Of a DNA stretch of 64,000 bases, positions 7,074-57,036 are shown in pieces. The position numbers were made by a program, and so were the translations under genes. The DNA lies in NCBI GenBank assembly GCA_037443785.1, contig JBBINR010000003.1:11950-75949 (forward strand). Reading direction: 5' to 3'. Under the pieces are notes generated by a model that was given only the letters and a program-made list of their open reading frames with translations, had not been told where the DNA came from and ran no database searches. Position 1 is the first letter of the stretch. The number at the start of each line of letters is the position of its first letter. The DNA is from Ignavibacteriales bacterium (GTDB lineage Bacteria; Bacteroidota; Ignavibacteria; UBA10030; UBA8401).

Positions 7074-7207
7074 TTTACCGTCACATCAAAATTATAAACT
7101 TCGTAAGATAATCGTCTTCACCGTTCTAAGTCTCAGCTGCGTCATCGTGTGGCTCTCAGTGATCTTTGATTGGTGAAGAAATGTAAATTGTCAAAGAACA
7201 AAAATTT

Positions 7208-7615
7208 TTATTGCTGCGTTGAATCGTACACAACATTGAATTCGACATACGCCGCCGCAAAGTCTGAGTAGTAACCGTCGAACTTCACCGGCTCCGCATT
7301 CTGCTGAATCATTACATCGGAAATTTCATTTACGATCTTTTCAACCTTCTCGCATAACTCAATCGCATCGAGCGCGCTGTAGATTGGATTGTCTTCACCG
7401 CCTGCGCAGGCAAAGAATGTGAACTTCGATTTTCTGATCACACTTCCTTTTTGTGAAGTTGTCCCGGGTTCCGGGTCAATATAAATCCACACGCACGGTG
7501 TCATACTCGGCATCGTACCGAATTTTCCAAAGTCAACATCAACCTTTGCAGCGGTCATCAATGCATGCTGCTGCAGTGCCGTTCGTATCGCGCTTGCCGC
7601 TTCTCGCAGTATCAT
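7208..7615 (-). CDS. Hypothetical phage protein (possible head-tail joining protein)
   Basis: 135 aa. It is the last gene of a 3-gene minus-strand cassette whose members overlap by 4 nt. Confidence 0.45.
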   Translation of the reverse strand: MILREAASAIRTALQQHALMTAAKVDVDFGKFGTMPSMTPCVWIYIDPEPGTTSQKGSVIRKSKFTFFACAGGEDNPIYSALDAIELCEKVEKIVNEISDVMIQQNAEPVKFDGYYSDFAAAYVEFNVVYDSTQQ

Positions 7616-8112
7616 CGTTTTTTCTCCATCTTGATTTTCGCAATTTCCTCATTGTAAATTTTTATCACGTCATCATTGGTTGCACCCGGTGCATAACGCC
7701 GGATGATGCGCGCGATGATTTCAGCGTCTGCTCGGTTCATGTGCGCTTCAAGTTCAACGCTTTGCAGGAACTGCCGAATGCGCGACATCTTGTAAAGAAT
7801 GCTGACCCGCGAATTCAATTTCATTTTTGGATTCATCTCAAGCATTCCGGCACAGAGCGAGAGCTGCGATTTCATCAAGCCGAGATCGTCATTTTCATCA
7901 CGCATCATTTGTGCTGCGTTTAACTGTCCCTTCGATGTGTTTTTCAGGAGTTCGGATTTTTCAGCGTGCTTCTGCAGCGCGTAACGCGCTTGGTGAATCT
8001 TCACGTGAAATTTTTTAGAAAGGTCCTGCAGCGTCGCTTCAGGATGATTGCTTTTCCAAATGGATATTTTACTCTGCAGTTGATCGGAAATAAAAATTCT
8101 TTTCTTATTCAT
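7612..8112 (-). CDS. Hypothetical phage protein with HTH-like N-terminus
   Basis: Start at MNKKRIFISDQ (ATG at 8112), 5 nt after the upstream stop. The N-terminal region HPEATLQDLSKKFHVKIHQARYAL is HTH-like. Confidence 0.45.
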   Translation of the reverse strand: MNKKRIFISDQLQSKISIWKSNHPEATLQDLSKKFHVKIHQARYALQKHAEKSELLKNTSKGQLNAAQMMRDENDDLGLMKSQLSLCAGMLEMNPKMKLNSRVSILYKMSRIRQFLQSVELEAHMNRADAEIIARIIRRYAPGATNDDVIKIYNEEIAKIKMEKKR

Positions 8113-8563
8113 TCTCGTAGAGTCCTCCCATCGTTCCAACTTTCGCCGGAGTTGTTGATGTTGAACCGCCTGCATGTTGCGCAAGAGTTTTCATTGCATT
8201 ATCATAATTCTTGGTGATGCGAGAATTATATTCCGGCGAGGTTGCTTCTAATTTTACGCTTGCAAGATATTCAAGAATCCATGCATACGGCTGTTGCATC
8301 CAATCCGGCGCTGTCGTAAACGTTCCGCACTTATCAATAATCATCGTCTCAGTATTTGCAGCGAACTTTCCAAAGTTCGTTTCATCGGCAAGAACTTTTG
8401 CGGCAGACTTGCTGAGCAGTTCTTTGATGTCGTTGTAGGTATAGAGCATGACGTCCTTTCTAAAATGATAATGCAAACATACCGCACGCAGAAAAAAAAA
8501 GTCGGGTATATGCGGATATACTCTATAATAATTTTCCCGCGTGATTAAATTTGCATCGTTCAT
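8105..8563 (-). CDS. Hypothetical phage protein
   Basis: 152-aa ORF, first gene of the divergent cassette. Confidence 0.45.
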   Translation of the reverse strand: MNDANLITRENYYRVYPHIPDFFFLRAVCLHYHFRKDVMLYTYNDIKELLSKSAAKVLADETNFGKFAANTETMIIDKCGTFTTAPDWMQQPYAWILEYLASVKLEATSPEYNSRITKNYDNAMKTLAQHAGGSTSTTPAKVGTMGGLYENE

Positions 8564-8593
8564 TTAGCAACCACATACACAGGAGAAAATTTT

Positions 8594-9121
8594 ATGAAGT
8601 TAAAAGATTTTGTTGCGCTGTTGAAAAAACTTTTGCCGGACAAGGTGAAAGAGATCGAGGAAGTTGAAAAAACAATTTCCGATGAACCGCCGACACCTCC
8701 AACTCCGAAAAAGGAACCGGAGACGGAAACGATTCCGCCAGCGCTGCAGCGGTTCATCGATTCTCAAACGGAAGCAATAAAGAATTTGTCGCAGCAGGTG
8801 AAAGACCTGAATGAGAAATCACAGTCGAATGAAAAAAATCAGCTGCAGGAAAAAATCGACACCGTGATTACGAAGGCAAAAGCTGATAAAAAAATTGCAG
8901 CGAAAGATGACGTGTCTGAAAAAATGTATCGCACGTTACTTGAAGCCAACTTCGATAATGCAAAAAAAGTGATCGAAGTATTGCCGGTCATCGGTGAAGC
9001 TGCAGCAACAAAGACGAATGTCCAAACCGCCGTGTCTCGCGGTACGCTCGGTGCAACGCAGACGGAACTCGGCAAAAAAATTGCAGAGTTCAGCGGCACT
9101 GCACAGACAAAAACTGAATAA
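8594..9121 (+). CDS. Phage scaffolding protein (putative)
   Basis: AGGAGA RBS upstream. Charged, helix-rich, with a Pro-rich linker (PPTPPTPKKEPETE). Sits immediately upstream of the major capsid gene. Confidence 0.5.
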   Translation: MKLKDFVALLKKLLPDKVKEIEEVEKTISDEPPTPPTPKKEPETETIPPALQRFIDSQTEAIKNLSQQVKDLNEKSQSNEKNQLQEKIDTVITKAKADKKIAAKDDVSEKMYRTLLEANFDNAKKVIEVLPVIGEAAATKTNVQTAVSRGTLGATQTELGKKIAEFSGTAQTKTE

Positions 9122-9154
9122 CCATTTTTTCATTATCACATAAAGGAGTAACAC

Positions 9155-10120
9155 ATGAATATAGCTCAAGTGTCATCGCTCAGCGGTCGCGGTCAAGGTT
9201 TACTGGAAGTCATGATTCAGGAAGCCCCGCTTCTGCAAACAGCGGAGTTCAAGCTGGAAGGAAGTTCGCATCTTGTTGTCACCGGTCGAAGCAAAACGAC
9301 CGACAGTGCTGCGCGCAAAGAAGGTGATCCCGGCGCAAAAAATACACCGACACCAAATACCACTGCGCGCAATCTCGCGCTCTACACACGCAACGTGTAT
9401 ATCGACGATGTCCGTCGTAACGACGTTGCTGCCGGTCTGCAGTCTGTTGAAGGATTGCGCTCGTTCGGCGATACACAGCTTCGCGTTGAAGCGAAAGGTC
9501 TCGCGTCTGAACTTGCGAATGAAATCATTAACGGTATCGATGCAAACGACGTCGGCGGTGTGTATCACATGCTCGGCATCAATCAGTTTGTAAAGGATGC
9601 TGCTGCTGCCGGACAAACAGCGCGCTTCGGTTTTACCGCTGCGCAAATTGCCGCGTTGAACAAAGAGGTAACACTGCAGCTAAATACCGCTGCAAACCAA
9701 GATGCATTTGTTGAATTGCTGGAACAAGAGATCGTGAATGTTCCGGGTGCGAATGCACTTATCATGAGCGGTCCGCTTTTCGCGCGTCTTGGAACAATTG
9801 CGCGACGGCTCGGCGCTGCAGGCGAAACACGAAACAGCTTCGGCGTTTCGGTGAAGACGTTTGCAAACGTTCCGATGATTCCGGTTGCAGGATTGGCAAT
9901 GGATGAAACATACGATGCCGTTGTCAACGCAGGCTCTATCTTCATCGTTCGCTTTGCTGAAGATACCGGCGTGCAGATCGACACGAACAGCGGTATCGCA
10001 TTCAAAGACTTCGACGAAGTCGAATCGATTCCTGCCGGCATGTCGCGCATTCAATCGTTCGTCAACCTGTCAATCCGTGAATTGAATTCTATTCGCCGAT
10101 TGTCACGCATTACGCTGTAA
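9155..10120 (+). CDS. Major capsid protein
   Basis: 321 aa, follows the scaffold, AGGAG RBS, and is followed by a strong hairpin. Confidence 0.65.
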   Translation: MNIAQVSSLSGRGQGLLEVMIQEAPLLQTAEFKLEGSSHLVVTGRSKTTDSAARKEGDPGAKNTPTPNTTARNLALYTRNVYIDDVRRNDVAAGLQSVEGLRSFGDTQLRVEAKGLASELANEIINGIDANDVGGVYHMLGINQFVKDAAAAGQTARFGFTAAQIAALNKEVTLQLNTAANQDAFVELLEQEIVNVPGANALIMSGPLFARLGTIARRLGAAGETRNSFGVSVKTFANVPMIPVAGLAMDETYDAVVNAGSIFIVRFAEDTGVQIDTNSGIAFKDFDEVESIPAGMSRIQSFVNLSIRELNSIRRLSRITL

Positions 10121-49146: not shown

Positions 49147-51363
49147 GTGAAGAAATATTGGATAGGATTCGCTTCGGTTATTGTCTTTTCGTTTGCGGTG
49201 CTGGGGTGGGTTGGAACACGCATTTATCACCAAGCACCGCCAATCCCGGATAAAGTTGTTACGAGTGATGGAGTAGTTGTGATTCCATCAGGTGATATTT
49301 CAATCGGTCAAAATGTTTGGCAGGCATTGGGAGGAATGGAAGTCGGCTCGGTGTGGGGACATGGAAGCTATGTTGCGCCGGACTGGTCAGCTGATTGGCT
49401 TCACCGTGAATTGATGTTCATTCTGAATGAATGGTCACAACAAGAACATCAAAAATCATTTGAAGCATTAACGAATGAAGAGCAAGCACAATTGAAAGCG
49501 CGGTTAACTGCACTGATTCGAAACAATACGTATGATCCGAACACGAATACTATTACCGTCGATCCGGTTCGCGCTCGTGCTTTCGAATCAAACCTACGGC
49601 ATTACAGCGATGTGTTTTCAAATGGAAAAACTGAATATGCAATTCGTAAAAATACGCAAAGCGATCCGGTAAAACTCCGACAGCTTGCGGCATTTATTTT
49701 TTGGTCATCATGGGCTGCATCAACAAATCGCCCCGGCGATAACATTACCTACACAAGCAACTGGCCTCATGAAGAACTCATCGGTAATCGTCCGACAGGA
49801 GATGCGGTCGTATGGACGGGCGTGAGCATTATTGTGCTTCTGGCGGGAATTGGCGGAATGATTTGGTTCCGTGCATCGCAAAAAACTGAGGAGATTCATG
49901 ATGACATTCCATCATCCGATCCACTTCTCAATTCAGTGGCAACGCCGTCGCAAAAAGCCACACTTAAATATTTTTGGACCGTGCTCGGATTGCTTCTTCT
50001 CCAAATGGGAATGGGAATGGTCACAGCACACTATGGAGTTGAAGGGGATGGATTCTACGGAATTCCACTCGCAAAATTTCTTCCGTATTCGATTGCCCGC
50101 ACATGGCACACGCAGCTCGGCATTTTCTGGATTGCAACAGCGTGGCTTGCCGCAGGATTATACATCGGGCCCGCCGTCAGCGGTGTTGAACCGAAAGGGC
50201 AACGTCTTGGTGTGAATGTGTTGTTCGGTGCATTGCTTGTTGTCGTGCTTGGTTCAATGGCAGGCGAGTGGATGAGTGTGATGAATCTTCTTCCGGATAA
50301 TCTTTGGTTCTTCTTCGGTCACAGCGGATATGAATATATCGACCTCGGCCGTTTCTTCCAGATTGCCTTGCTCATCGGATTATTTTTATGGTTTTGGCTG
50401 ATGTTCCGTTCGATTCGTCCTGCACTGCAGAAAAAAGATGAACAAAAACCAATCCTCACATTATTTCTCATTTCAAGCGCAGCCATCGCCTCATTCTATG
50501 CATCGGCATTGATGTACGGCAAACACACAAATCTTGCCGTCACGGAATACTGGCGCTGGTGGGTTGTGCATCTGTGGGTTGAAGGATTCTTCGAGGTTTT
50601 CGCGACTGTGGTGATTGCCTTTCTTTTTGCGCGGCTAAAATTAATAAGTTTGAAAACAGCCGGAGCCGCAACAATATTTTCCTCAACAATTTTTCTTTCC
50701 GGCGGAATCATCGGCACACTGCATCATCTCTATTTTTCGGGAACGCCGACTTTTGTGCTGGCGCTCGGTTCGGTCTTCAGCGCGCTGGAAGTTGTTCCGC
50801 TGGTGTTTGTGGGATATGAAGCGTGGGAAAATATCAAAATCTCCAGAGCAAAAGAGTGGGTGCAGAATTATAAATGGCCTATCTACTTCTTCGTCTCCGT
50901 TGCGTTTTGGAATCTTGTCGGCGCGGGCTTGTTCGGATTCATGATCAATCCGCCGATTGCATTGTATTACATGCAGGGATTGAACACCACGCCGGTGCAC
51001 GGACATGCGGCATTGTTTGGCGTGTACGGAATGCTTGGCATCGGATTGCTTCTGTTCTGTCTCCGCGCAATGAATCCGAGGTTGCAATGGAACGGAAAGC
51101 TCATCGGATTTTCTTTCTGGACGATCAATGCAGGATTGTTTGCGATGGTAACATTCAGTTTGCTTCCGGTCGGGTTAATGCAAACATGGGCTTCGGTTGA
51201 GTATGGATATTGGTATGCACGAAGCGCAGAATTTTTGCAGACAGGAATTATGTCCACACTGCGATGGATGCGCGTTCCGGGCGATACGATTTTTGCCATC
51301 GGAATTCTTGCGCTGGTCGTTTTTGTGGTGAACGTAACGTTGAAAGGAACTTCGGAAAAATAA
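49147..51363 (+). CDS. Quinol-dependent nitric oxide reductase large subunit (qNOR, NorB/NorZ)
   Basis: 738-aa heme-copper oxidase-type 12+ TM core with N-terminal periplasmic extension; conserved His ligands. Confidence 0.85.
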   Translation: MKKYWIGFASVIVFSFAVLGWVGTRIYHQAPPIPDKVVTSDGVVVIPSGDISIGQNVWQALGGMEVGSVWGHGSYVAPDWSADWLHRELMFILNEWSQQEHQKSFEALTNEEQAQLKARLTALIRNNTYDPNTNTITVDPVRARAFESNLRHYSDVFSNGKTEYAIRKNTQSDPVKLRQLAAFIFWSSWAASTNRPGDNITYTSNWPHEELIGNRPTGDAVVWTGVSIIVLLAGIGGMIWFRASQKTEEIHDDIPSSDPLLNSVATPSQKATLKYFWTVLGLLLLQMGMGMVTAHYGVEGDGFYGIPLAKFLPYSIARTWHTQLGIFWIATAWLAAGLYIGPAVSGVEPKGQRLGVNVLFGALLVVVLGSMAGEWMSVMNLLPDNLWFFFGHSGYEYIDLGRFFQIALLIGLFLWFWLMFRSIRPALQKKDEQKPILTLFLISSAAIASFYASALMYGKHTNLAVTEYWRWWVVHLWVEGFFEVFATVVIAFLFARLKLISLKTAGAATIFSSTIFLSGGIIGTLHHLYFSGTPTFVLALGSVFSALEVVPLVFVGYEAWENIKISRAKEWVQNYKWPIYFFVSVAFWNLVGAGLFGFMINPPIALYYMQGLNTTPVHGHAALFGVYGMLGIGLLLFCLRAMNPRLQWNGKLIGFSFWTINAGLFAMVTFSLLPVGLMQTWASVEYGYWYARSAEFLQTGIMSTLRWMRVPGDTIFAIGILALVVFVVNVTLKGTSEK

Positions 51364-51380
51364 ATTGCGGTATTACAATT

Positions 51381-51423
51381 AAACTGTCAGGCATCGAAAA
51401 AAATGTCTGACAGTTTTTATTTT
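51381..51423 (+). terminator. Rho-independent terminator after the qNOR gene
   Basis: AAACTGTCAGGCAT-cgaaaaaa-ATGTCTGACAGTTT followed by TTTTATTTT. Confidence 0.75.
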
Positions 51424-51805
51424 AAATCGCTGCGATCACTCGCTCTAACCGTGCTTTTACTTCATCGGCGATCGGTTTCAGCGCGGGATTTTCGACAAGT
51501 TTTTCCATGATACCCGGATTGAAGGCAGAGACAACGATTGAATCGTTTTTTTCGTATACAATAATATTGCAGGGGAGAAGCAATCCGATCTCTTTCTCAG
51601 CATGTAGCGATTTATTGGCAAACTGAGGATTGCATGCGCCGAGAATGATGTAGCGTGGAATATCAACATCGATTTTTTTCTTCAGCGTCTCTTTCATGTC
51701 AATTGTCGTGAGAACGCCAAAGCCTTCCTTTTTTAATTCTTCGGTGACTTTTTCGATCGCTTGTTCGTACGAAAGGGAAACCCTTTTTGAAATTCCGTAA
51801 TTCAT
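51422..51805 (-). CDS. DUF302 domain protein
   Basis: Start MNYGISKRV (ATG 51805); typical DUF302 length and pattern. Confidence 0.65.
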   Translation of the reverse strand: MNYGISKRVSLSYEQAIEKVTEELKKEGFGVLTTIDMKETLKKKIDVDIPRYIILGACNPQFANKSLHAEKEIGLLLPCNIIVYEKNDSIVVSAFNPGIMEKLVENPALKPIADEVKARLERVIAAI

Positions 51806-51809
51806 GTTT

Positions 51810-52271
51810 TTACTCTGTGATAATAGTTGGTTCAATAATGACTTTTGCTGTCAATGAATTGGCGATCAAGCAATTTTCATGCGCTTGATGAACAATTTCT
51901 TCAACCTGTTCTTTCGTCCATGATTGCTCAACAACAATTTCCGGTTTCACAATCACTTTTGTGAACTTATATTTTCCTTCAACATTTTCCAGCAATCCTT
52001 CTGCTGAGCTTTTGTAGGACTTGAGCGGAATTCCTTTTCGTGTTCCGAACGCTAAAAAGGTTGACATCGTGCAAATTTCAACTGCGGCGACAAGAAAATC
52101 TTCCGGAGTCCACACGCCGGGAATCCCTTTAAATTCCGGCGGACTAGAAATTGCAATCTCCGGCTTGCCTTCGGAGTTTAAAGTGCCCTGGCGTTCAGAT
52201 TTCCATGCAACGGAAGTGCGATAGGTGAACGATTTATATTTCTTTATCGGTTGAGGCGCTGTCGTTTCCAT
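51810..52271 (-). CDS. OsmC/Ohr family protein (start at METTAPQ; overlaps upstream small gene by 38 nt)
   Basis: OsmC-like core with conserved Cys in VEICTMSTF. Confidence 0.7.
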   Translation of the reverse strand: METTAPQPIKKYKSFTYRTSVAWKSERQGTLNSEGKPEIAISSPPEFKGIPGVWTPEDFLVAAVEICTMSTFLAFGTRKGIPLKSYKSSAEGLLENVEGKYKFTKVIVKPEIVVEQSWTKEQVEEIVHQAHENCLIANSLTAKVIIEPTIITE

Positions 52272-52482
52272 GTTCAATTTCTTTCTTTTCTTTTTTCGGT
52301 TTATCAACAAGAAACGCGCCGGCAAGAATTCCATATCCCGTAGAAATGTACGGATTGCTTGTAATGGGACACGTACCGCTGGCGCATCCGATAAAATGAT
52401 AATAGGCGTAGCCCGCAGTCCCGCCGATACATGCGGCAACGGCGCGCTTCTGCCAGAGTGTTAACGATTTGAAAAATTCCAT
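52234..52482 (-). CDS. Small membrane protein with CASGTCP motif
   Basis: 82 aa; hydrophobic core AVAACIGGTAGYAYYHFIGCASGTCPI. Confidence 0.5.
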   Translation of the reverse strand: MEFFKSLTLWQKRAVAACIGGTAGYAYYHFIGCASGTCPITSNPYISTGYGILAGAFLVDKPKKEKKEIEHGNDSASTDKEI

Positions 52483-52841
52483 GATGCAATTCCACCTTGT
52501 AAATTCCCGACTGTGAATCCAGCTTTTTTTAGTTTCAATGCCGCGTTGATGCTTCGGCTTCCGCTTGCGCAGTAGCAGATGATTTCTTTGCTGCGGTGTT
52601 TTTCAAGATCTTTAATTCGTGAACCAAGTTCGTGAAGCGGAATGTGGAGCGACGATGCAATCGAACGTGAGCTTCGTTCGGCGGCGGTGCGGACATCGAG
52701 CATCACGCTACTGGATTTCATCCGCTCTTTTGCTTCGGCGGCAGAATATTGAGTAACGCCGCGCATGCGAAATTGTTTTCTGAGATAGAGGAGTACAATA
52801 AGTCCAAGAATTACGTAAAAAATAATTTGATCCGATGTCAT
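52461..52841 (-). CDS. Membrane-anchored rhodanese-domain sulfurtransferase
   Basis: N-terminal TM helix; active-site loop CYCASGSRS. Confidence 0.8.
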   Translation of the reverse strand: MTSDQIIFYVILGLIVLLYLRKQFRMRGVTQYSAAEAKERMKSSSVMLDVRTAAERSSRSIASSLHIPLHELGSRIKDLEKHRSKEIICYCASGSRSINAALKLKKAGFTVGNLQGGIASWNFSNR

Positions 52842-53245
52842 TCGCCATTTCCTTTAAGTGTAGAATATCCTTCTGCTTTCCATTGATTGATTCCTCCTGT
52901 CATGCTCACTGCATTGAATCCTTTGCTCCGAAGCAGTTCTGTCGCAATGCCGCTGCGATGTCCTGAACGACAGTACACAATGATTTTTTTATTTTTGTAA
53001 GACCGCAGTTCGTCAATGCGCGATCTCAATTCTTGCAGCGGAATCAGCGGCGTATCGGCAATCCGTTCGGTGGAATTTTCCTGCGGCGTTCTCACATCAA
53101 GCAGCACAATTGTTGAATCGTTGTTCAACGCATTGCGAGTTTCTTGAACAGAAATAACAGCAGAATCATTCTGTTGGGCAATAATAAAACCTGCTGCAGC
53201 AAGAACAATTGCCGTAGCAATTATTTTTCGAGAATGTTTTTTCAT
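52838..53245 (-). CDS. Secreted rhodanese-domain sulfurtransferase
   Basis: Signal peptide from MKKHSRKIIATAIVLAAAGF; active-site CRSGHRS. Confidence 0.8.
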   Translation of the reverse strand: MKKHSRKIIATAIVLAAAGFIIAQQNDSAVISVQETRNALNNDSTIVLLDVRTPQENSTERIADTPLIPLQELRSRIDELRSYKNKKIIVYCRSGHRSGIATELLRSKGFNAVSMTGGINQWKAEGYSTLKGNGE

Positions 53246-53246
53246 A

Positions 53247-53480
53247 TTAATTGACTCCGCAGGAACCGCCGCAGCACGAACCTGATTCGCATGACGAAGA
53301 AGAAGAATCGTACGATGACGACGAATCATTTCCCATGGACATCATGGTCAGCGACATCACTTTTCGATGTTGCGCTGATCCGCAGGAAGGGCAGACGACA
53401 TCGTCTTCTACTTCGCGCACTTTGTGGAACACATCATATTTCTTTTTGCAGTCTGTACAGATATACTCGTAGGTCGGCAT
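53247..53480 (-). CDS. FmdB-family zinc-ribbon protein with Ser/Cys-rich C-terminal tail
   Basis: CTDC...CPSC plus SSSSYDSSSSSCESGSCCGGSCG. Confidence 0.65.
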   Translation of the reverse strand: MPTYEYICTDCKKKYDVFHKVREVEDDVVCPSCGSAQHRKVMSLTMMSMGNDSSSSYDSSSSSCESGSCCGGSCGVN

Positions 53481-53491
53481 TGCGCTGTCTC

Positions 53492-53866
53492 TTATGATAA
53501 TGTGATAATTTTTTTCTCAAGTAATTTTTCGTTGATGATCTTTTGCAGCTCTGCTTTCGGCAAAGCGCCCATTGCCATCATCGGCTGCTTGTCTTTTGGA
53601 ATGAACAACAATGACGGAATGCTTTGAATGCCGAACACGCCGGCGAGTTCCTGCTCTTCGTCCGTATTCACTTTGTAGAAGTTCACCTGCCCCTTCATTT
53701 CTTCGGACAGCTCATCGATGAGCGGACTTAAGAAACGGCACGGTCCGCACCACGGCGCCCAGAAATCGACGACGGCGGGAAGTTCGCCGGTGAATTTCCA
53801 TTCTTTGTTTTTTTCGTAATCAAAAATTTTTGTTAAGAAGGTGTCTTTTGTGAGCACTTCTGTCAT
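53492..53866 (-). CDS. trxA: Thioredoxin
   Basis: WAPWCGPCR active site; start at MTEVLTKD. Confidence 0.85.
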   Translation of the reverse strand: MTEVLTKDTFLTKIFDYEKNKEWKFTGELPAVVDFWAPWCGPCRFLSPLIDELSEEMKGQVNFYKVNTDEEQELAGVFGIQSIPSLLFIPKDKQPMMAMGALPKAELQKIINEKLLEKKIITLS

Positions 53867-53903
53867 ACATACTCCATTGAAAATCTTTTTGTGAATTATC
53901 TTT

Positions 53904-54107
53904 TTATATTTTTTTGACGTCAATTTTTTTGTTTGTATCGACGCCGATTGCGTGCCAAATTGGACAGTACTTAATAAACCCCGTTACAACGAAAATCAAT
54001 CCCACATACGCCCACGGGGTTTCAGGTCCCCAAAACGCAAGTGATGTAATCAATAATCCTAATAAAATTCGAATTGGCCGTTCAATAGCACCGATGTTTG
54101 TTTTCAT
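53904..54107 (-). CDS. DUF2892 (YgaP-like TM domain) small membrane protein
   Basis: 67 aa; conserved GFIKYCPIW. Confidence 0.6.
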   Translation of the reverse strand: MKTNIGAIERPIRILLGLLITSLAFWGPETPWAYVGLIFVVTGFIKYCPIWHAIGVDTNKKIDVKKI

Positions 54108-54189
54108 GATGACTTTCCTTTGTCTGAGTTGTAAAGAGAATCGTTAATGAACTATTCTTCTTGTATGATGCAATCGGACAGAAAAGGAT

Positions 54190-54471
54190 TCAGCGGCGCG
54201 TTCTCTTTTTCGGATGCTGTTTATCCAATCGGACAACAGCAAATAGTTCGGTTTTGATTTTGGTCGGAAGTTTAGGAGTTGGGTATTTCCGGTACAGATA
54301 CACTGTTTTTTTGAGCGAATCGAGCAGTGCCGTACAATTTTCACATCCGGCAAGATGTGCTTTAATTTGACGGCACGATTCAGAGTCAATTTGTTCATCT
54401 AAATTATCACACAAATGCTCGTACACTTCCGGGCAGGAAAGAATATGCTTATGTGAATGATGATGTTTCAT
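54190..54471 (-). CDS. Zinc-binding anti-sigma factor (ZAS, RsrA-like)
   Basis: HxxxCxxC motif AHLAGCENC plus extra N-terminal Cys. 4-nt overlap with the sigma gene. Confidence 0.7.
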   Translation of the reverse strand: MKHHHSHKHILSCPEVYEHLCDNLDEQIDSESCRQIKAHLAGCENCTALLDSLKKTVYLYRKYPTPKLPTKIKTELFAVVRLDKQHPKKRTRR

Positions 54472-55061
54472 GATGTCATGAACCCGTGTAATTGTTGTCG
54501 TAAAAATATTCGTGATCGTCTCAGCCTGGATTTTACTGCTGGCACAGTGAGTCCGGTAATTTTTGATGTCTCTTCTGCTGTTCGATGTTCAAGATCGCGC
54601 AGCACAAACACAACTTTGTATTCGTCGGGCAATTTCATGATCGCGTCATCCAATTGGTTTCGCAGTTCACTGTTCAGCATTTTTTCCATCGGAGTATCAT
54701 CCCACGTCGTGAGCTGCCTTTGCACTTTTTCATCCTCAACATCCGGCGCATCATCATACGATTCGAGAAGATCTTCAAGCTTCCTTCTGCGCCGTTTCAT
54801 TAAACAATTGTTGGCAACGATCGTGTACAGCCATGTTGAAAATTTTGAACGTCCGTCAAACTGATCAATCTTCCGAAAGACATTGACGAACGTATCTTGA
54901 AACGATTCTTCCGCTTTTTCTTTGTCGCGGCACAGCTTAAATGCGAATCCCCAGACTGTTTGTTCGTACCGCTGCACAAGTTTAGAAAATGCCCGCTCAT
55001 CGCCAGATTTTATTTTGGCGATAAGATCATGATCGGCGGCGGTGTCGTGAAGTTCTTTCAT
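54468..55061 (-). CDS. ECF-type RNA polymerase sigma-70 factor
   Basis: Region 2 (FQDTFVNVF) and region 4 HTH (ETSKITGLTVPAVKSRLRRSR). Confidence 0.85.
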   Translation of the reverse strand: MKELHDTAADHDLIAKIKSGDERAFSKLVQRYEQTVWGFAFKLCRDKEKAEESFQDTFVNVFRKIDQFDGRSKFSTWLYTIVANNCLMKRRRRKLEDLLESYDDAPDVEDEKVQRQLTTWDDTPMEKMLNSELRNQLDDAIMKLPDEYKVVFVLRDLEHRTAEETSKITGLTVPAVKSRLRRSRIFLRQQLHGFMTS

Positions 55062-55301
55062 TCAGTACGATGCAATGAATTCGGAAAAAGGTTCTTTGTC
55101 ATGCATGAAAGATAAAAATAAATTATGAAGGAAGAAAATATTGAGAGGTGTCTCAATTTGAAATTTACTCAAATGCAAATGTTATTCCCGCACGCTTTTG
55201 GTGGGAATCCATTGATGGATGCCCGACAGAAACATTCGGGCATGACGAATCTTAGTTAAACTAAGACGCTACAAAATGTTGCGGAAATATTTACGACTCG
55301 A

Positions 55302-55742
55302 TCAATGAAAATACTCCATATGCATTTCTTCCGCACATTTCGGGCAGAGTCCGTGACTGAACGTTGTTCCAGTGTGTTTGTTGATGTAGGTTTCAAACGG
55401 TGTCCACGAATCCTGCAGTTTCGGATCAGATTCAGGTTCACGAATTCGTTTGCATCGAGCGCAGATAGAAAGGAGTGACTCAAGCGTCTTTATTTTTGAA
55501 AGAGCGCTTTCAAGATTTTTTGAATAGAAGTGAGTGAGACCAAAAGCAATTATGCACACTACCGCTGTACACCCGCCGACGAGAAGATGTTCATCGTCAA
55601 AGTAAGGGATCTCCGGATGGAGAACAAAATCAACCAATGCATTCAAATTGGCAATAAACGCAATAATAAAAATAGAAAAAACAGCACGATAGATTGGGGA
55701 GATTAAAACAAGGCGATTGTTTTGCAGAATTGAACCGACCAT
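55302..55742 (-). CDS. Two-TM membrane protein with C-terminal CxxC...CxxC zinc-ribbon
   Basis: CARCKRIR ... GLCPKC after two hydrophobic helices. Confidence 0.45.
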   Translation of the reverse strand: MVGSILQNNRLVLISPIYRAVFSIFIIAFIANLNALVDFVLHPEIPYFDDEHLLVGGCTAVVCIIAFGLTHFYSKNLESALSKIKTLESLLSICARCKRIREPESDPKLQDSWTPFETYINKHTGTTFSHGLCPKCAEEMHMEYFH

Positions 55743-55995: not shown

Positions 55996-57036
55996 ATGAA
56001 ACGCCGTTCAGCACTTATATCGCTCGTCTATCTTCCCGCTATGTTGAATTCGGGAAAATTATTTGCACAGGATCGAACATCTCTTCCTGCTCATCACAGT
56101 GATAACGGATTCATTAACACCGATCCCGATTTTGAAGAAGCGCCGATTACCGAAATGGCTCCGTGGGTTATGGAAAAATTCGGAAACATTTTTTCCAAAA
56201 CACCGAAAGTAGATATTCCGCGTTTCTATAATGACGGCTCGATTTTTAAGGAACAAAAGCCGTACACCGTTACATGGATTGGTCACTCTACTGTTTTAAT
56301 TCAAATGGAAGGAAAAAATATTCTCACCGATCCGGTGTGGGCTGAATCTGCCGGACCGTTTCGCTGGGGCGGTTCTCCGCGAATTTCGGATCCAGGATTG
56401 GACTTTTCAAAACTTCCGCCGCTTGATGCCGTGTTGATTTCTCACAATCATTACGACCATCTCGATCAATCGACAATTGAAAACATTGCCGACAATCATC
56501 CCAACGTAAAATTTTTTGTTCCTCTCCGCGTGCGCGATTGGTTTGAAGATAAAGGGATTCAAAATGTCGAAGAATTAGATTGGTGGGAAGGGGTGACATT
56601 CAACGGATTGAAGATCATCTGCATGCCGGCACAGCATTTTTCCGGACGATGGATCAACGACAAGAATCAAACGCTCTGGTGCTCATGGGCGGTCCTCGGC
56701 AAAAAGAAATTATATTTTACCGGCGATTCGGGATACTGCTCTCATTTTAAACATATCGGGAAAAATTTTGGTCCGTTCGATCTCACCATGATTCCCATTG
56801 GCGCTTACGAACCGAGAAAATTGATGAAACCCGTTCATATGAATCCCGCCGAAGCGGTACAAACATCGATGGATCTGCGCGGAAAGAAAATGCTCGGCAT
56901 TCATTGGGGAACATTTGTGATGACCGATGAGCCGATGGACGAACCTCCTCAGAAATTATATGAAGCCGTTGATGCGCAAAAATTTCCGCATGACGATTTT
57001 TGGATATTTAAGCTGGGTGAAACAAGAGAGTGGTAG
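55996..57036 (+). CDS. Secreted MBL-fold Zn-dependent hydrolase (NAPE-PLD-like)
   Basis: Signal peptide; ISHNHYDHLD motif. Confidence 0.7.
   Translation: MKRRSALISLVYLPAMLNSGKLFAQDRTSLPAHHSDNGFINTDPDFEEAPITEMAPWVMEKFGNIFSKTPKVDIPRFYNDGSIFKEQKPYTVTWIGHSTVLIQMEGKNILTDPVWAESAGPFRWGGSPRISDPGLDFSKLPPLDAVLISHNHYDHLDQSTIENIADNHPNVKFFVPLRVRDWFEDKGIQNVEELDWWEGVTFNGLKIICMPAQHFSGRWINDKNQTLWCSWAVLGKKKLYFTGDSGYCSHFKHIGKNFGPFDLTMIPIGAYEPRKLMKPVHMNPAEAVQTSMDLRGKKMLGIHWGTFVMTDEPMDEPPQKLYEAVDAQKFPHDDFWIFKLGETREW

Follow-up and report, generated by a model that had tools for sequence, protein, structure and literature searches.

A conserved ECF sigma/anti-sigma operon with two promoters in uncultured Ignavibacteria-like bacteria, a candidate thiol-stress switch

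Genes and layout of the operon

A 64,000-nucleotide stretch of contig JBBINR010000003.1 from an Ignavibacteriales bacterium (assembly GCA_037443785.1), referred to here as the window, carries at positions 51422 to 55061 of its minus strand a ten-gene operon headed by genes for an extracytoplasmic function (ECF) sigma factor and a zinc-associated anti-sigma (ZAS) factor. A preliminary description, made from the letters of this DNA, had proposed a tightly spaced ten-gene unit of thiol and sulfur proteins here, and the open reading frames (ORFs) and profile scores confirm all ten genes, the domain named for each, and the close packing.

The sigma factor gene (54468 to 55061; 197 amino acids [aa]) encodes a group 4 protein (Sigma70_r2, 66 bits; Sigma70_r4_2, 49.8 bits) and overlaps by 4 nt (ATGA) the gene for the 93-aa ZAS (zf-HC2) anti-sigma factor (54190 to 54471; PF13490, 28.2 bits against a cutoff of 22.2), which carries the motif HLAGCENC. 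After a gap of 82 nt follow the genes for a 67-aa DUF2892/YgaP-like_TM protein with two transmembrane (TM) segments (53904 to 54107; 60.8 bits), a 124-aa thioredoxin with the active site WCGPC (53492 to 53866; TIGR01068, 111 bits against a cutoff of 96.8), and an FmdB zinc ribbon protein (53247 to 53480) in which two CxxC motifs are followed by a Ser-rich linker and a C-terminal Ser/Cys tail, CxSGSCCGGSC. Next come an exported rhodanese, Rho1 (52838 to 53245), with a Sec-type signal peptide and the loop CRSGHRS, and a second rhodanese, Rho2 (52461 to 52841), with an N-terminal TM anchor and the loop CASGSRS. The last three genes encode an 82-aa, two-TM hairpin protein of the DUF6132 family (52234 to 52482) with the motif CASGTCP (G-C33-x-S-G-x-C38), a 153-aa OsmC/Ohr-family thiol peroxidase-like protein (51810 to 52271) with two conserved Cys residues (EIC67T and ENC134L), and a 127-aa DUF302 protein (51422 to 51805), also with two (GAC58NP and LPC79N). 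The mechanically called ORF starts of the thioredoxin, Rho1, OsmC, and DUF302 lie too far upstream, and the coordinates given here use the ATG starts supported by orthologues.

Gaps of 37, 11, 1, and 4 nt separate DUF2892 from thioredoxin, thioredoxin from FmdB, FmdB from Rho1, and OsmC from DUF302, and overlaps of 4, 22, and 38 nt join Rho1 to Rho2, Rho2 to DUF6132 (52461 to 52482), and DUF6132 to OsmC (52234 to 52271), giving intergenic distances of −38 to 37 nt in the effector block. The 22-nt and 38-nt overlaps, noticed earlier, are real and are also present in L002 and L003 (L-numbers label the homologous loci compared with the window). The 38 shared nucleotides are dual coding, specifying both the C-terminal tail of the DUF6132 protein (...DSASTDKEI) and the N terminus of OsmC (METTAPQPIKK), and this overlap is found in the loci with gene calls, L002 and L003. 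A programmed frameshift fusing Rho2 to DUF6132 was rejected, since the overlap contains an ordinary internal ATG with an upstream GGTGGA; such a fusion is also disfavored by the varying order of the DUF6132 and rhodanese genes in other loci.

Downstream of the operon, a hairpin with a 14-bp stem (51381 to 51416) is flanked by the stop codon of DUF302 (51422) and that of the convergent gene norB (51363). Its T-tract is good on the plus strand and weaker (TTTAATTGT) on the minus strand, and, as had been proposed, it is probably a bidirectional terminator common to norB and the operon. The sole match in an Rfam scan of positions 51200 to 55400 was a spurious microRNA hit on this hairpin.

Conservation in related genomes

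A scan of one genome per species, made with an alignment of four sigma factor orthologues, yielded 17 close loci at 68 to 83% identity, all from metagenome-assembled genomes of uncultured Ignavibacteria/Bacteroidota. When these were searched with the ten window proteins by tblastn, the order sigma-ZAS-DUF2892-thioredoxin-(FmdB)-(Rho1)-Rho2-DUF6132-OsmC-DUF302 proved to be kept in all of the approximately 17 species-level loci, with FmdB undetected in five, Rho1 missing in two (L002/L015 and L012), and DUF302 missing in one. Because the same order is kept in this many species-level genomes, the ten-gene arrangement is not due to chance.

Relatives of the anti-sigma factor at 46 to 48% identity head shorter units, consisting of sigma-ZAS-DUF2892-DUF6132-thioredoxin, of sigma-ZAS-DUF2892, or, in L030, of sigma-ZAS-DUF2892-DUF6132. 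DUF2892 is the first effector gene in every relative, the distant ones included. As the distant units are shorter, DUF2892, DUF6132, and thioredoxin constitute the conserved core, and the rhodaneses, OsmC, DUF302, and FmdB are an expansion found in the lineage of the window.

Two ECF-type promoters and the extent of the regulon

Comparison of the region preceding the sigma gene with the spacer between the ZAS and DUF2892 genes uncovered a conserved ECF-type promoter that occurs twice per locus, TGAATCCTTTT-N10-TGCATCnTA, which is new in the present analysis. The preliminary description had suggested that an ECF promoter be sought upstream of position 55061, and one is found there: P1 (GAACCTTTTTCCGAATTCATTGCATC; 55069 to 55094, minus strand) stands in front of the sigma gene, and its position does not change in any of the 19 loci. 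A second, P2 (GAATCCTTTTCTGTCCGATTGCATC; 54167 to 54191, minus strand), lies between the anti-sigma and DUF2892 genes and is likewise present in every one of the 19 loci examined. The consensus is tG(a/c)ATCcTTTt-N-TGCATCnTA for P1 and TGAATCCTTTt-N-GCATCnTA for P2. The −10 element of P1 ends 7 nt before the sigma ATG in the window, and the distance from the end of GCATC to this ATG is 6 nt in 14 loci and 7 nt in 4, which accounts for 18 of the 19. An ECF transcript begins a few bases downstream of the −10 element, and the mRNA of the sigma gene is therefore probably leaderless. The −35 element of P2 begins on the anti-sigma stop codon, and P2 is followed by a leader of about 50 nt with a AAAGGAAAG Shine-Dalgarno sequence before DUF2892.

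The regular expression ATCYTT-N11-14-GCATC matches about 47 times in the 386 kb formed by the window and the loci, compared with 1.25 times in shuffled sequence, an excess of approximately 40-fold, and about 40 of these matches fall at the two predicted positions. For a stricter form of the motif, the 64-kb window yields three matches where 0.06 would be expected, and two of the three are P1 and P2. The third (8275 to 8300, plus strand), within an ORF in a phage-like region, has no CTTTT part and was rejected as a chance match. A generic sigma-70 promoter scan remained at background level, with 11 found and 9.3 expected. The geometry of the motif, TGAATC-N16-CATC, is that of an ECF promoter. 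It parallels the SigW consensus, TGAAAC-N16-CGTA, and fits the finding that SigW is the closest solved relative of the sigma factor.

The motif also accompanies the operon families where they are found in other arrangements. The scan of rearranged loci used a looser pattern with a background of about 18 matches per 480 kb, and only full-consensus instances beside operon families were counted. In loci where the genes are rearranged or no sigma gene is in view, such instances lie upstream of DUF302-thioredoxin-DUF6132 in L006, L007, and L037; upstream of FmdB in L040, L043, and L049; upstream of rhodanese/DUF302 in L043 and L049; upstream of thioredoxin-DUF6132 in L066 and L076; and upstream of DUF2892 in L055, L065, L069, L070, and L080.

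A T-rich block, TCTTTTTTCTCTATTCTTT, stands just upstream of the P1 −35 element in most orthologues (L014, L016 to L024, and L028; for example, at about 6780 to 6800 in L016) and is only loosely present in the window (55110 to 55135). It could act as an UP-like element or a housekeeping promoter, or a regulator could bind there.

The sigma factor and its soluble anti-sigma factor

The sigma factor consists of regions 2 and 4 only (TIGR02937, 106 bits against a cutoff of 42.9). Its best solved relative is SigW of Bacillus subtilis, at 94.8 bits, and it falls below every NCBIfam equivalog cutoff (NF007223, 138 versus 209 bits; TIGR02948, 117 versus 243 bits). The paper on ECF reclassification mentions no group with a thioredoxin or rhodanese context, and we therefore assign no ECF group number. 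With its gene overlapping that of the ZAS factor and preceded by the conserved motif, the sigma factor is probably cotranscribed with its anti-sigma partner and autoregulated from the predicted ECF-type promoter. Two of its Cys residues, C44 and C86, are invariant in the four aligned orthologues and are also found in the distant sigma factor of L030 (FKVCRD and NNCRMK); this pair could add redox control at a second level, of a kind that has been put forward for some ECF groups.

The anti-sigma factor has no hydrophobic or TM segment. A cytoplasmic protein of 93 aa is not controllable by membrane proteolysis, and it would therefore have to sense something in the cytoplasm. Its notable Cys and His residues are C13, C21, C33, H39, C43, and C46, with H39-x3-C43-x2-C46 forming the motif HxxxCxxC. 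In an alignment of 31 relatives, C33, C43, and C46 never vary, conservation reaches at least 90% for C13 and H39, and C21 persists in close and middle relatives. The spacing of C13/C33/H39/C43/C46 is identical to that of C11/C31/H37/C41/C44 of RsrA (PMC3177212). A profile search of the full library brought together 411 clusters of short soluble ZAS proteins as one family at an E value of ≤1e-10, and among 149 representatives the HxxxCxxC motif is present in 146, the Cys at −6 in 125, and a Cys at −25 to −27 in 134, which gives the family pattern C(−26)...C(−6)-H-x3-C-x2-C. Among solved structures, the cytoplasmic domain of RsiW matches best (E = 0.11). An AlphaFold2 model (pLDDT, 74) predicts four helices, at residues 13 to 23, 31 to 41, 46 to 62, and 70 to 84, and a Foldseek search of this model against PDB gave no significant match.

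The protein begins with a His-rich segment, MKHHHSHKH (residues 1 to 9; 54445 to 54471 in the window), adjoining the first predicted zinc-ligand Cys. An HxHxH pattern is found in most close relatives and is absent from the distant relatives of 82 to 88 aa.

Cysteines and topology of the effector proteins

Every product of the operon has conserved Cys residues in the orthologue alignment. The thioredoxins of sigma/ZAS loci are without a signal peptide (6 of 6). Rho1 keeps the active-site loop CRSG(N/H)RS across orthologues, and all of them have a basic n-region, a hydrophobic core, and an ...AQQ site (...IAQQ in the window), which together indicate a Sec signal peptide. The N terminus of Rho2 follows the pattern MTS(D/E)Q-TM-RKQxxxR in all 18 orthologues (MTSDQ-TM-RKQFRMR in the window), and by the positive-inside rule its catalytic domain is cytoplasmic. 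The preliminary description had spoken of periplasmic sulfurtransferases; the signal peptide of Rho1 and the TM anchor of Rho2 bear this out in part, but the Rho2 domain faces the cytoplasm. By these topology rules the periplasmic side would hold only Rho1 and the Cys pair of the DUF6132 protein.

In DUF2892, the motif (K/R)YCPIWH is invariant. Its position after the second TM segment, beside a Lys-rich tail, puts the Cys at the inner face of the membrane, in agreement with the published topology of YgaP (PMC4730233). Both micro-membrane proteins had been described as carrying a conserved Cys-Pro. This holds for DUF2892 but not for the DUF6132 protein, in which Cys-Pro is approximately 90% conserved family-wide but is replaced by Cys-Ala in 12 of 14 operon orthologues. 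Several members of the operon also match, weakly, the NCBIfam "(seleno)protein" rhodanese and OsmC models.

The DUF6132 family and its neighborhoods

The 82-aa protein scores 19.6 bits with Pfam DUF6132 (PF19628), under the cutoff of 23.2, and most of its 330 homologues are annotated as PF19628. Members are small two-TM proteins with the core GYAYYxFIGCxSGTCPITSNPY, in which G20, G24, Y27, Y28, G32, C33, S35, G36, C38, I40, P44, Y50, and G51 are invariant; the invariant Cys motif is thus G-C-x-S-G-x-C. Helices are predicted at residues 9 to 33 and 44 to 58, and both termini are basic; these helix boundaries are all that was taken from an AlphaFold2 model of low confidence (pLDDT, 62). Given the basic termini and the helix layout, the Cys pair would lie at the turn, on the outer (periplasmic) face of the membrane. 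A literature search on DUF6132 returned no relevant paper. Two profile comparisons by hhalign were set aside, and we claim no homology from either: one aligned GGxxGYAYYxFIGCxSG of DUF6132 with GGFLVGFGTRYAGGCTSG of a YeeE/YedE protein (E = 0.01; 4% probability), and the other matched only five residues around the Cys-Pro of DUF2892.

A metagenome scan found more than 594 DUF6132 relatives, and the best 80 loci were annotated with hidden Markov models built for this analysis. Within 2.5 kb of DUF6132 in these best 80 loci, thioredoxin occurs in 49, rhodanese in 22, DUF2892 in 15, DUF302 in 15, TlpA-like redoxin in 10, and ZAS in 10, and an ArsR gene is directly upstream in 12. The density of thioredoxin genes per 100 kb is 23.1 in the inner flank versus 2.0 in the outer flank, and that of rhodanese genes is 15.1 versus 0.5, so the co-occurrence of the CASGTCP protein with rhodaneses that the preliminary description had proposed to check is indeed found. 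In ArsR-headed DUF6132 loci, the thioredoxins have a lipoprotein or Sec signal (10 of 10). All ten redoxins are anchored. Outside the operon, too, the neighbors of DUF6132 form thiol and sulfur clusters. In L010, DUF6132 lies in a large sulfide oxidation cluster together with PDO-rhodanese, YeeE/YedE, Pyr_redox_2, AhpC, thioredoxin, and OsmC. DUF302 has been described in CsoR-PDO-rhodanese-TauE clusters and in sox clusters in the literature.

Other Bacteroidota have a recurrent module of a Cys-rich ArsR, DUF6132, a 77-aa HMA-like CxxC protein, and a lipoprotein thioredoxin (L008, 5596 to 7073; also L053, L067, L084, L087, L089, L090, L093, L094, L098, and L101). The lipoprotein thioredoxin of this module belongs to the same thioredoxin subfamily as the signal-less thioredoxin of the window.

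Neighboring genes

Read along the minus strand, the operon is followed first by four opposite-strand genes, crp, hemerythrin, scdA, and norB, which form a nitric oxide (NO) island, and then by rplU-rpmA-mdh. In about 9 of the 17 orthologous loci, norB and/or scdA is convergently downstream. The island has been reduced to scdA and crp in L004, and in L003 (4350 to 4469) and L005 (2829 to 2948) a 40-aa remnant of norB (75% identity) stands between DUF302 and rplU, so the NO reductase island has been deleted from this position in the L003/L005 lineage; the operon is intact in all three. The distant sigma-ZAS-DUF2892-DUF6132 modules have unrelated neighbors, with no NO island nearby, and a search for the promoter motif found no copy in the NO island. 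The island is ancestral synteny that is being eroded and is not evidence of joint function, and the earlier suggestion that the operon works together with it comes down to synteny.

On the other side of the operon, the divergent gene next to sigma encodes an exported protein with a metallo-β-lactamase (MBL) fold (55996 to 57036, plus strand; Lactamase_B_2, 145 bits; N-terminal signal-like segment), and 15 of the 17 orthologous loci keep it there at 66 to 73% identity; no copy of the ECF promoter faces the MBL gene. In the genome of the window only, a 146-aa ORF (55302 to 55742, minus strand) sits between the MBL and sigma genes. It has two hydrophobic segments, a C-terminal CxRC...W..FE.Y...HGLCPKC, and no Pfam match, and its C-terminal 65 aa match at 38% the end of a 316-aa protein encoded upstream of sigma in L002/L015. 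Farther away, at about 7200 to 10100, is a phage-like block whose ORFs include one of 321 aa that resembles a major capsid protein, a scaffold-like one of 175 aa rich in Lys and Glu, and several with no Pfam match.

A proposed thiol-redox switch and its alternatives

Gene content and its conservation, the two promoters, regulon membership as traced by promoter footprinting, the Cys/His pattern of the anti-sigma factor, and topology by sequence rules are the observations on which our interpretation builds. On balance, we lean toward reading the operon as an autoregulated ECF sigma/anti-sigma thiol-redox switch, with a soluble ZAS sensor of RsrA-like pattern, that responds to thiol-oxidizing or sulfane-sulfur stress. 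At rest, the zinc-loaded anti-sigma factor would hold the sigma factor. A thiol-reactive stress in the cytoplasm, most likely disulfide stress from oxidants or from sulfane sulfur (persulfides and polysulfides), would oxidize or persulfidate C13/C33/C43/C46, with loss of zinc and release of the sigma factor. RNA polymerase carrying the sigma factor would then fire from P1, producing the leaderless sigma-ZAS transcript as positive feedback, and from P2, expressing the eight tightly packed and partly overlapping genes. The cytoplasmic thioredoxin would reduce its targets and probably also the anti-sigma factor, closing a negative feedback or reset loop. Exported Rho1 and the membrane-anchored, cytoplasm-facing Rho2 would carry sulfane sulfur, the micro-proteins would present the DUF2892 Cys at the inner face and the DUF6132 CxSGxC pair at the outer face, and the OsmC-type peroxidase, DUF302, and the FmdB zinc ribbon would complete the set of products. 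Jointly, they may clear away sulfane sulfur and regenerate thiols in the cytoplasm and the periplasm alike. Within this scheme, we infer that the anti-sigma factor binds zinc and senses redox state, and likewise what the signal is, how the feedback loops run, and what the micro-proteins do.

Sulfane sulfur is the most likely trigger given the rhodaneses, DUF302, and the other neighborhoods of DUF6132. Its accumulation has been reported to cause disulfide stress that rhodaneses limit or relieve (PMC9163753), and cytoplasmic peptide ZAS factors that control oxidative repair of the envelope are known from RpoE2/HrsE (PMC7907618). A specific role of the operon in persulfide handling is plausible.

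Several findings weigh against this interpretation. The anti-sigma factor reaches 33.8 bits on the RsrA family model, TIGR03988, whose cutoff is 62.5. The residues that determine the redox behavior of RsrA, E39, E40, L45, and E46, are A, G, T, and A in the window protein; some anti-sigma orthologues carry a Glu before C43. SigW/RsiW are the closest solved relatives of the pair, and the ZAS domain of RsiW is reported to be insensitive to thiol oxidants (PMC3177212). The leaderless start and both transcription start sites are positioned by spacing. Finally, the operon lacks SQR, PDO, CoA-persulfide reductase, TauE, and YeeE, the hallmark enzymes for reactive sulfur species (RSS), and a sulfane-sulfur signal is therefore not favored over a generic oxidant.

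We accordingly keep, as unlikely but deserving of weight because SQR, PDO, TauE, YeeE, and the RsrA determinant residues are absent, an explanation in which the regulatory architecture is the same and the signal is a general oxidant such as HOCl or peroxide that damages the envelope, the rhodaneses protecting thiols or handling sulfenic acids instead of carrying sulfur, in parallel to RpoE2/HrsE and the sigmaE/MseR system of Neisseria. Control of periplasmic repair proteins by a cytoplasmic peptide ZAS factor and an ECF sigma factor is an established pattern, and both a thioredoxin and an OsmC-type peroxidase are in the operon. However, MsrAB, the signature target of the RpoE2/HrsE and sigmaE/MseR systems, is absent; the two rhodaneses, DUF302, and the sulfide oxidation neighborhoods of DUF6132 point to sulfur chemistry; and the likeness to the ECF13 members is one of description, not of sequence comparison.

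A response to thiophilic metals or metalloids (Hg, Cd, Cu, arsenite, selenite, or tellurite) strikes us as quite improbable and is kept because of the His-rich tail and the ArsR-HMA modules. The toxic ion would be bound by the His-rich Cys/His anti-sigma factor, the DUF6132 and DUF2892 proteins would be two-TM carriers of soft cargo like MerF/MerE, and the thioredoxin and rhodaneses would process that cargo. The two small proteins do resemble MerF/MerE in size and topology, and the MKHHHSHKH N terminus is found in most anti-sigma orthologues. The ArsR-DUF6132-HMA(CxxC)-lipoprotein-thioredoxin modules of other Bacteroidota, with ArsR directly upstream in 12 of 80 loci (L008 and L053), point the same way, as do an HMA protein and a TehB-like methyltransferase beside DUF2892/DUF6132 in L010 and the weak "(seleno)protein" matches. 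The operon itself, however, contains no metal reductase, efflux pump, or HMA protein; the ArsR-family regulators of such clusters include the persulfide sensors SqrR, BigR, and YgaV; and DUF6132 has no similarity to Mer proteins detectable with Pfam and NCBIfam, the libraries searched.

It is very improbable that the operon is a nitrosative stress module acting with the NO island, in which S-nitrosation of the anti-sigma factor would free sigma, with the operon products serving to repair nitrosated thiols. The shared hairpin terminator and the convergent norB and/or scdA of about half of the loci are in its favor, and responses to HNO/NO and RSS are reported to intersect in Staphylococcus aureus (PMC5480029), but the island is on the opposite strand without a promoter copy, is reduced in L004 and L003/L005 beside an intact operon, is absent near the distant modules, and merely sits between the operon and rplU-rpmA-mdh as ancestral synteny. 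That the genes are simply adjacent without common sigma control, the repeated motif being chance or an unrelated element, is barely credible: generic sigma-70 and terminator scans do stay at background level, but the motif is about 40-fold over expectation at positions fixed across 19 loci, has ECF architecture, and follows the same gene families when they are rearranged, and the effector genes are spaced by only −38 to 37 nt.

Relation to known systems

The preliminary description had likened the operon to the SigR-RsrA regulon of actinomycetes (ECF12). The likeness stands for the small soluble anti-sigma factor with identical Cys/His spacing, for the autoregulated sigma gene, and for the thioredoxin in the regulon, which allows a reduce-and-reset loop. 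It does not extend to membership in the RsrA family: the anti-sigma factor is below the family cutoff, the flanking redox determinants are not kept, the sigma factor is nearest to SigW, and the promoter has TGAATC-N16-CATC in place of GGAAT-N18-GTT. The host also differs, being a gram-negative member of the FCB group without mycothiol, and the regulon consists mostly of rhodaneses and micro-membrane proteins. SigW-RsiW of B. subtilis (ECF30) provides the closest solved relatives of both proteins and a similar promoter geometry, but RsiW is a membrane protein under regulated proteolysis and is the one reported insensitive to thiol oxidants, whereas the window anti-sigma factor is a cytoplasmic domain only, and both window proteins fall under the NCBIfam equivalog cutoffs.

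By description, the ECF13-type systems RpoE2/HrsE of Haemophilus influenzae and sigmaE/MseR of Neisseria are similar in having a cytoplasmic, peptide-sized ZAS factor in a gram-negative host, targets that act on the envelope under oxidative stress, and a small regulon headed by the sigma and anti-sigma genes. Their MsrAB (and DoxX) targets are absent from the window, which has instead thioredoxin, rhodaneses, DUF2892, DUF6132, OsmC, and DUF302. Rhodanese and DUF2892 also occur together in YgaV-YgaP of Escherichia coli, where YgaP is a rhodanese fused to DUF2892; in the window, by contrast, DUF2892 is a stand-alone protein of 67 aa and each rhodanese has a gene to itself, one of the two proteins bearing an N-terminal anchor. 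The RSS regulons of CstR, SqrR/BigR, and FisR likewise have a Cys-based regulator and clusters in which DUF302, rhodanese, and thioredoxin recur, but the regulator in the window is an ECF/ZAS pair and not a CsoR, ArsR, or Fis protein, and the operon has no SQR, PDO, TauE, or YeeE. A review of RSS sensors covers the CsoR, ArsR, and Fis families and secondary sensors and lists no sigma/anti-sigma pair (PMC13467558). The system of the window looks like a variant of a known thiol-stress switch with a well-defined promoter and targets that are mostly uncharacterized Cys proteins.

Implications

A bolder combined proposal, which we regard as decidedly unlikely, is that the sigma/ZAS pair would be the first ECF-type sensor dedicated to RSS and that DUF6132 and DUF2892 would together form an unrecognized minimal membrane relay. 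Such a relay would pass reducing equivalents or sulfane sulfur between the cytoplasmic thioredoxin or anchored rhodanese and periplasmic partners, which would be the exported rhodanese in the window and the exported thioredoxin-fold lipoproteins in ArsR-headed loci, and in function it would be a counterpart, built from two helices, to CcdA/DsbD or to YeeE-type sulfur carriers.

The operon provides a promoter-defined, cleanly bounded regulon for an uncharacterized branch of ECF sigma factors in uncultured Ignavibacteria-like bacteria, and it brings four families of unknown function (DUF6132, DUF2892, DUF302, and FmdB) under one thiol-type switch, which makes their function testable. The association of DUF6132 with a cytoplasmic thioredoxin in ECF loci and with an exported one in ArsR loci hints at a membrane relay for thiols or sulfur. 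Should the sulfur signal prove true, the RSS sensors of the CsoR, ArsR, and Fis families would be joined by a further class, that of an ECF/anti-sigma pair.

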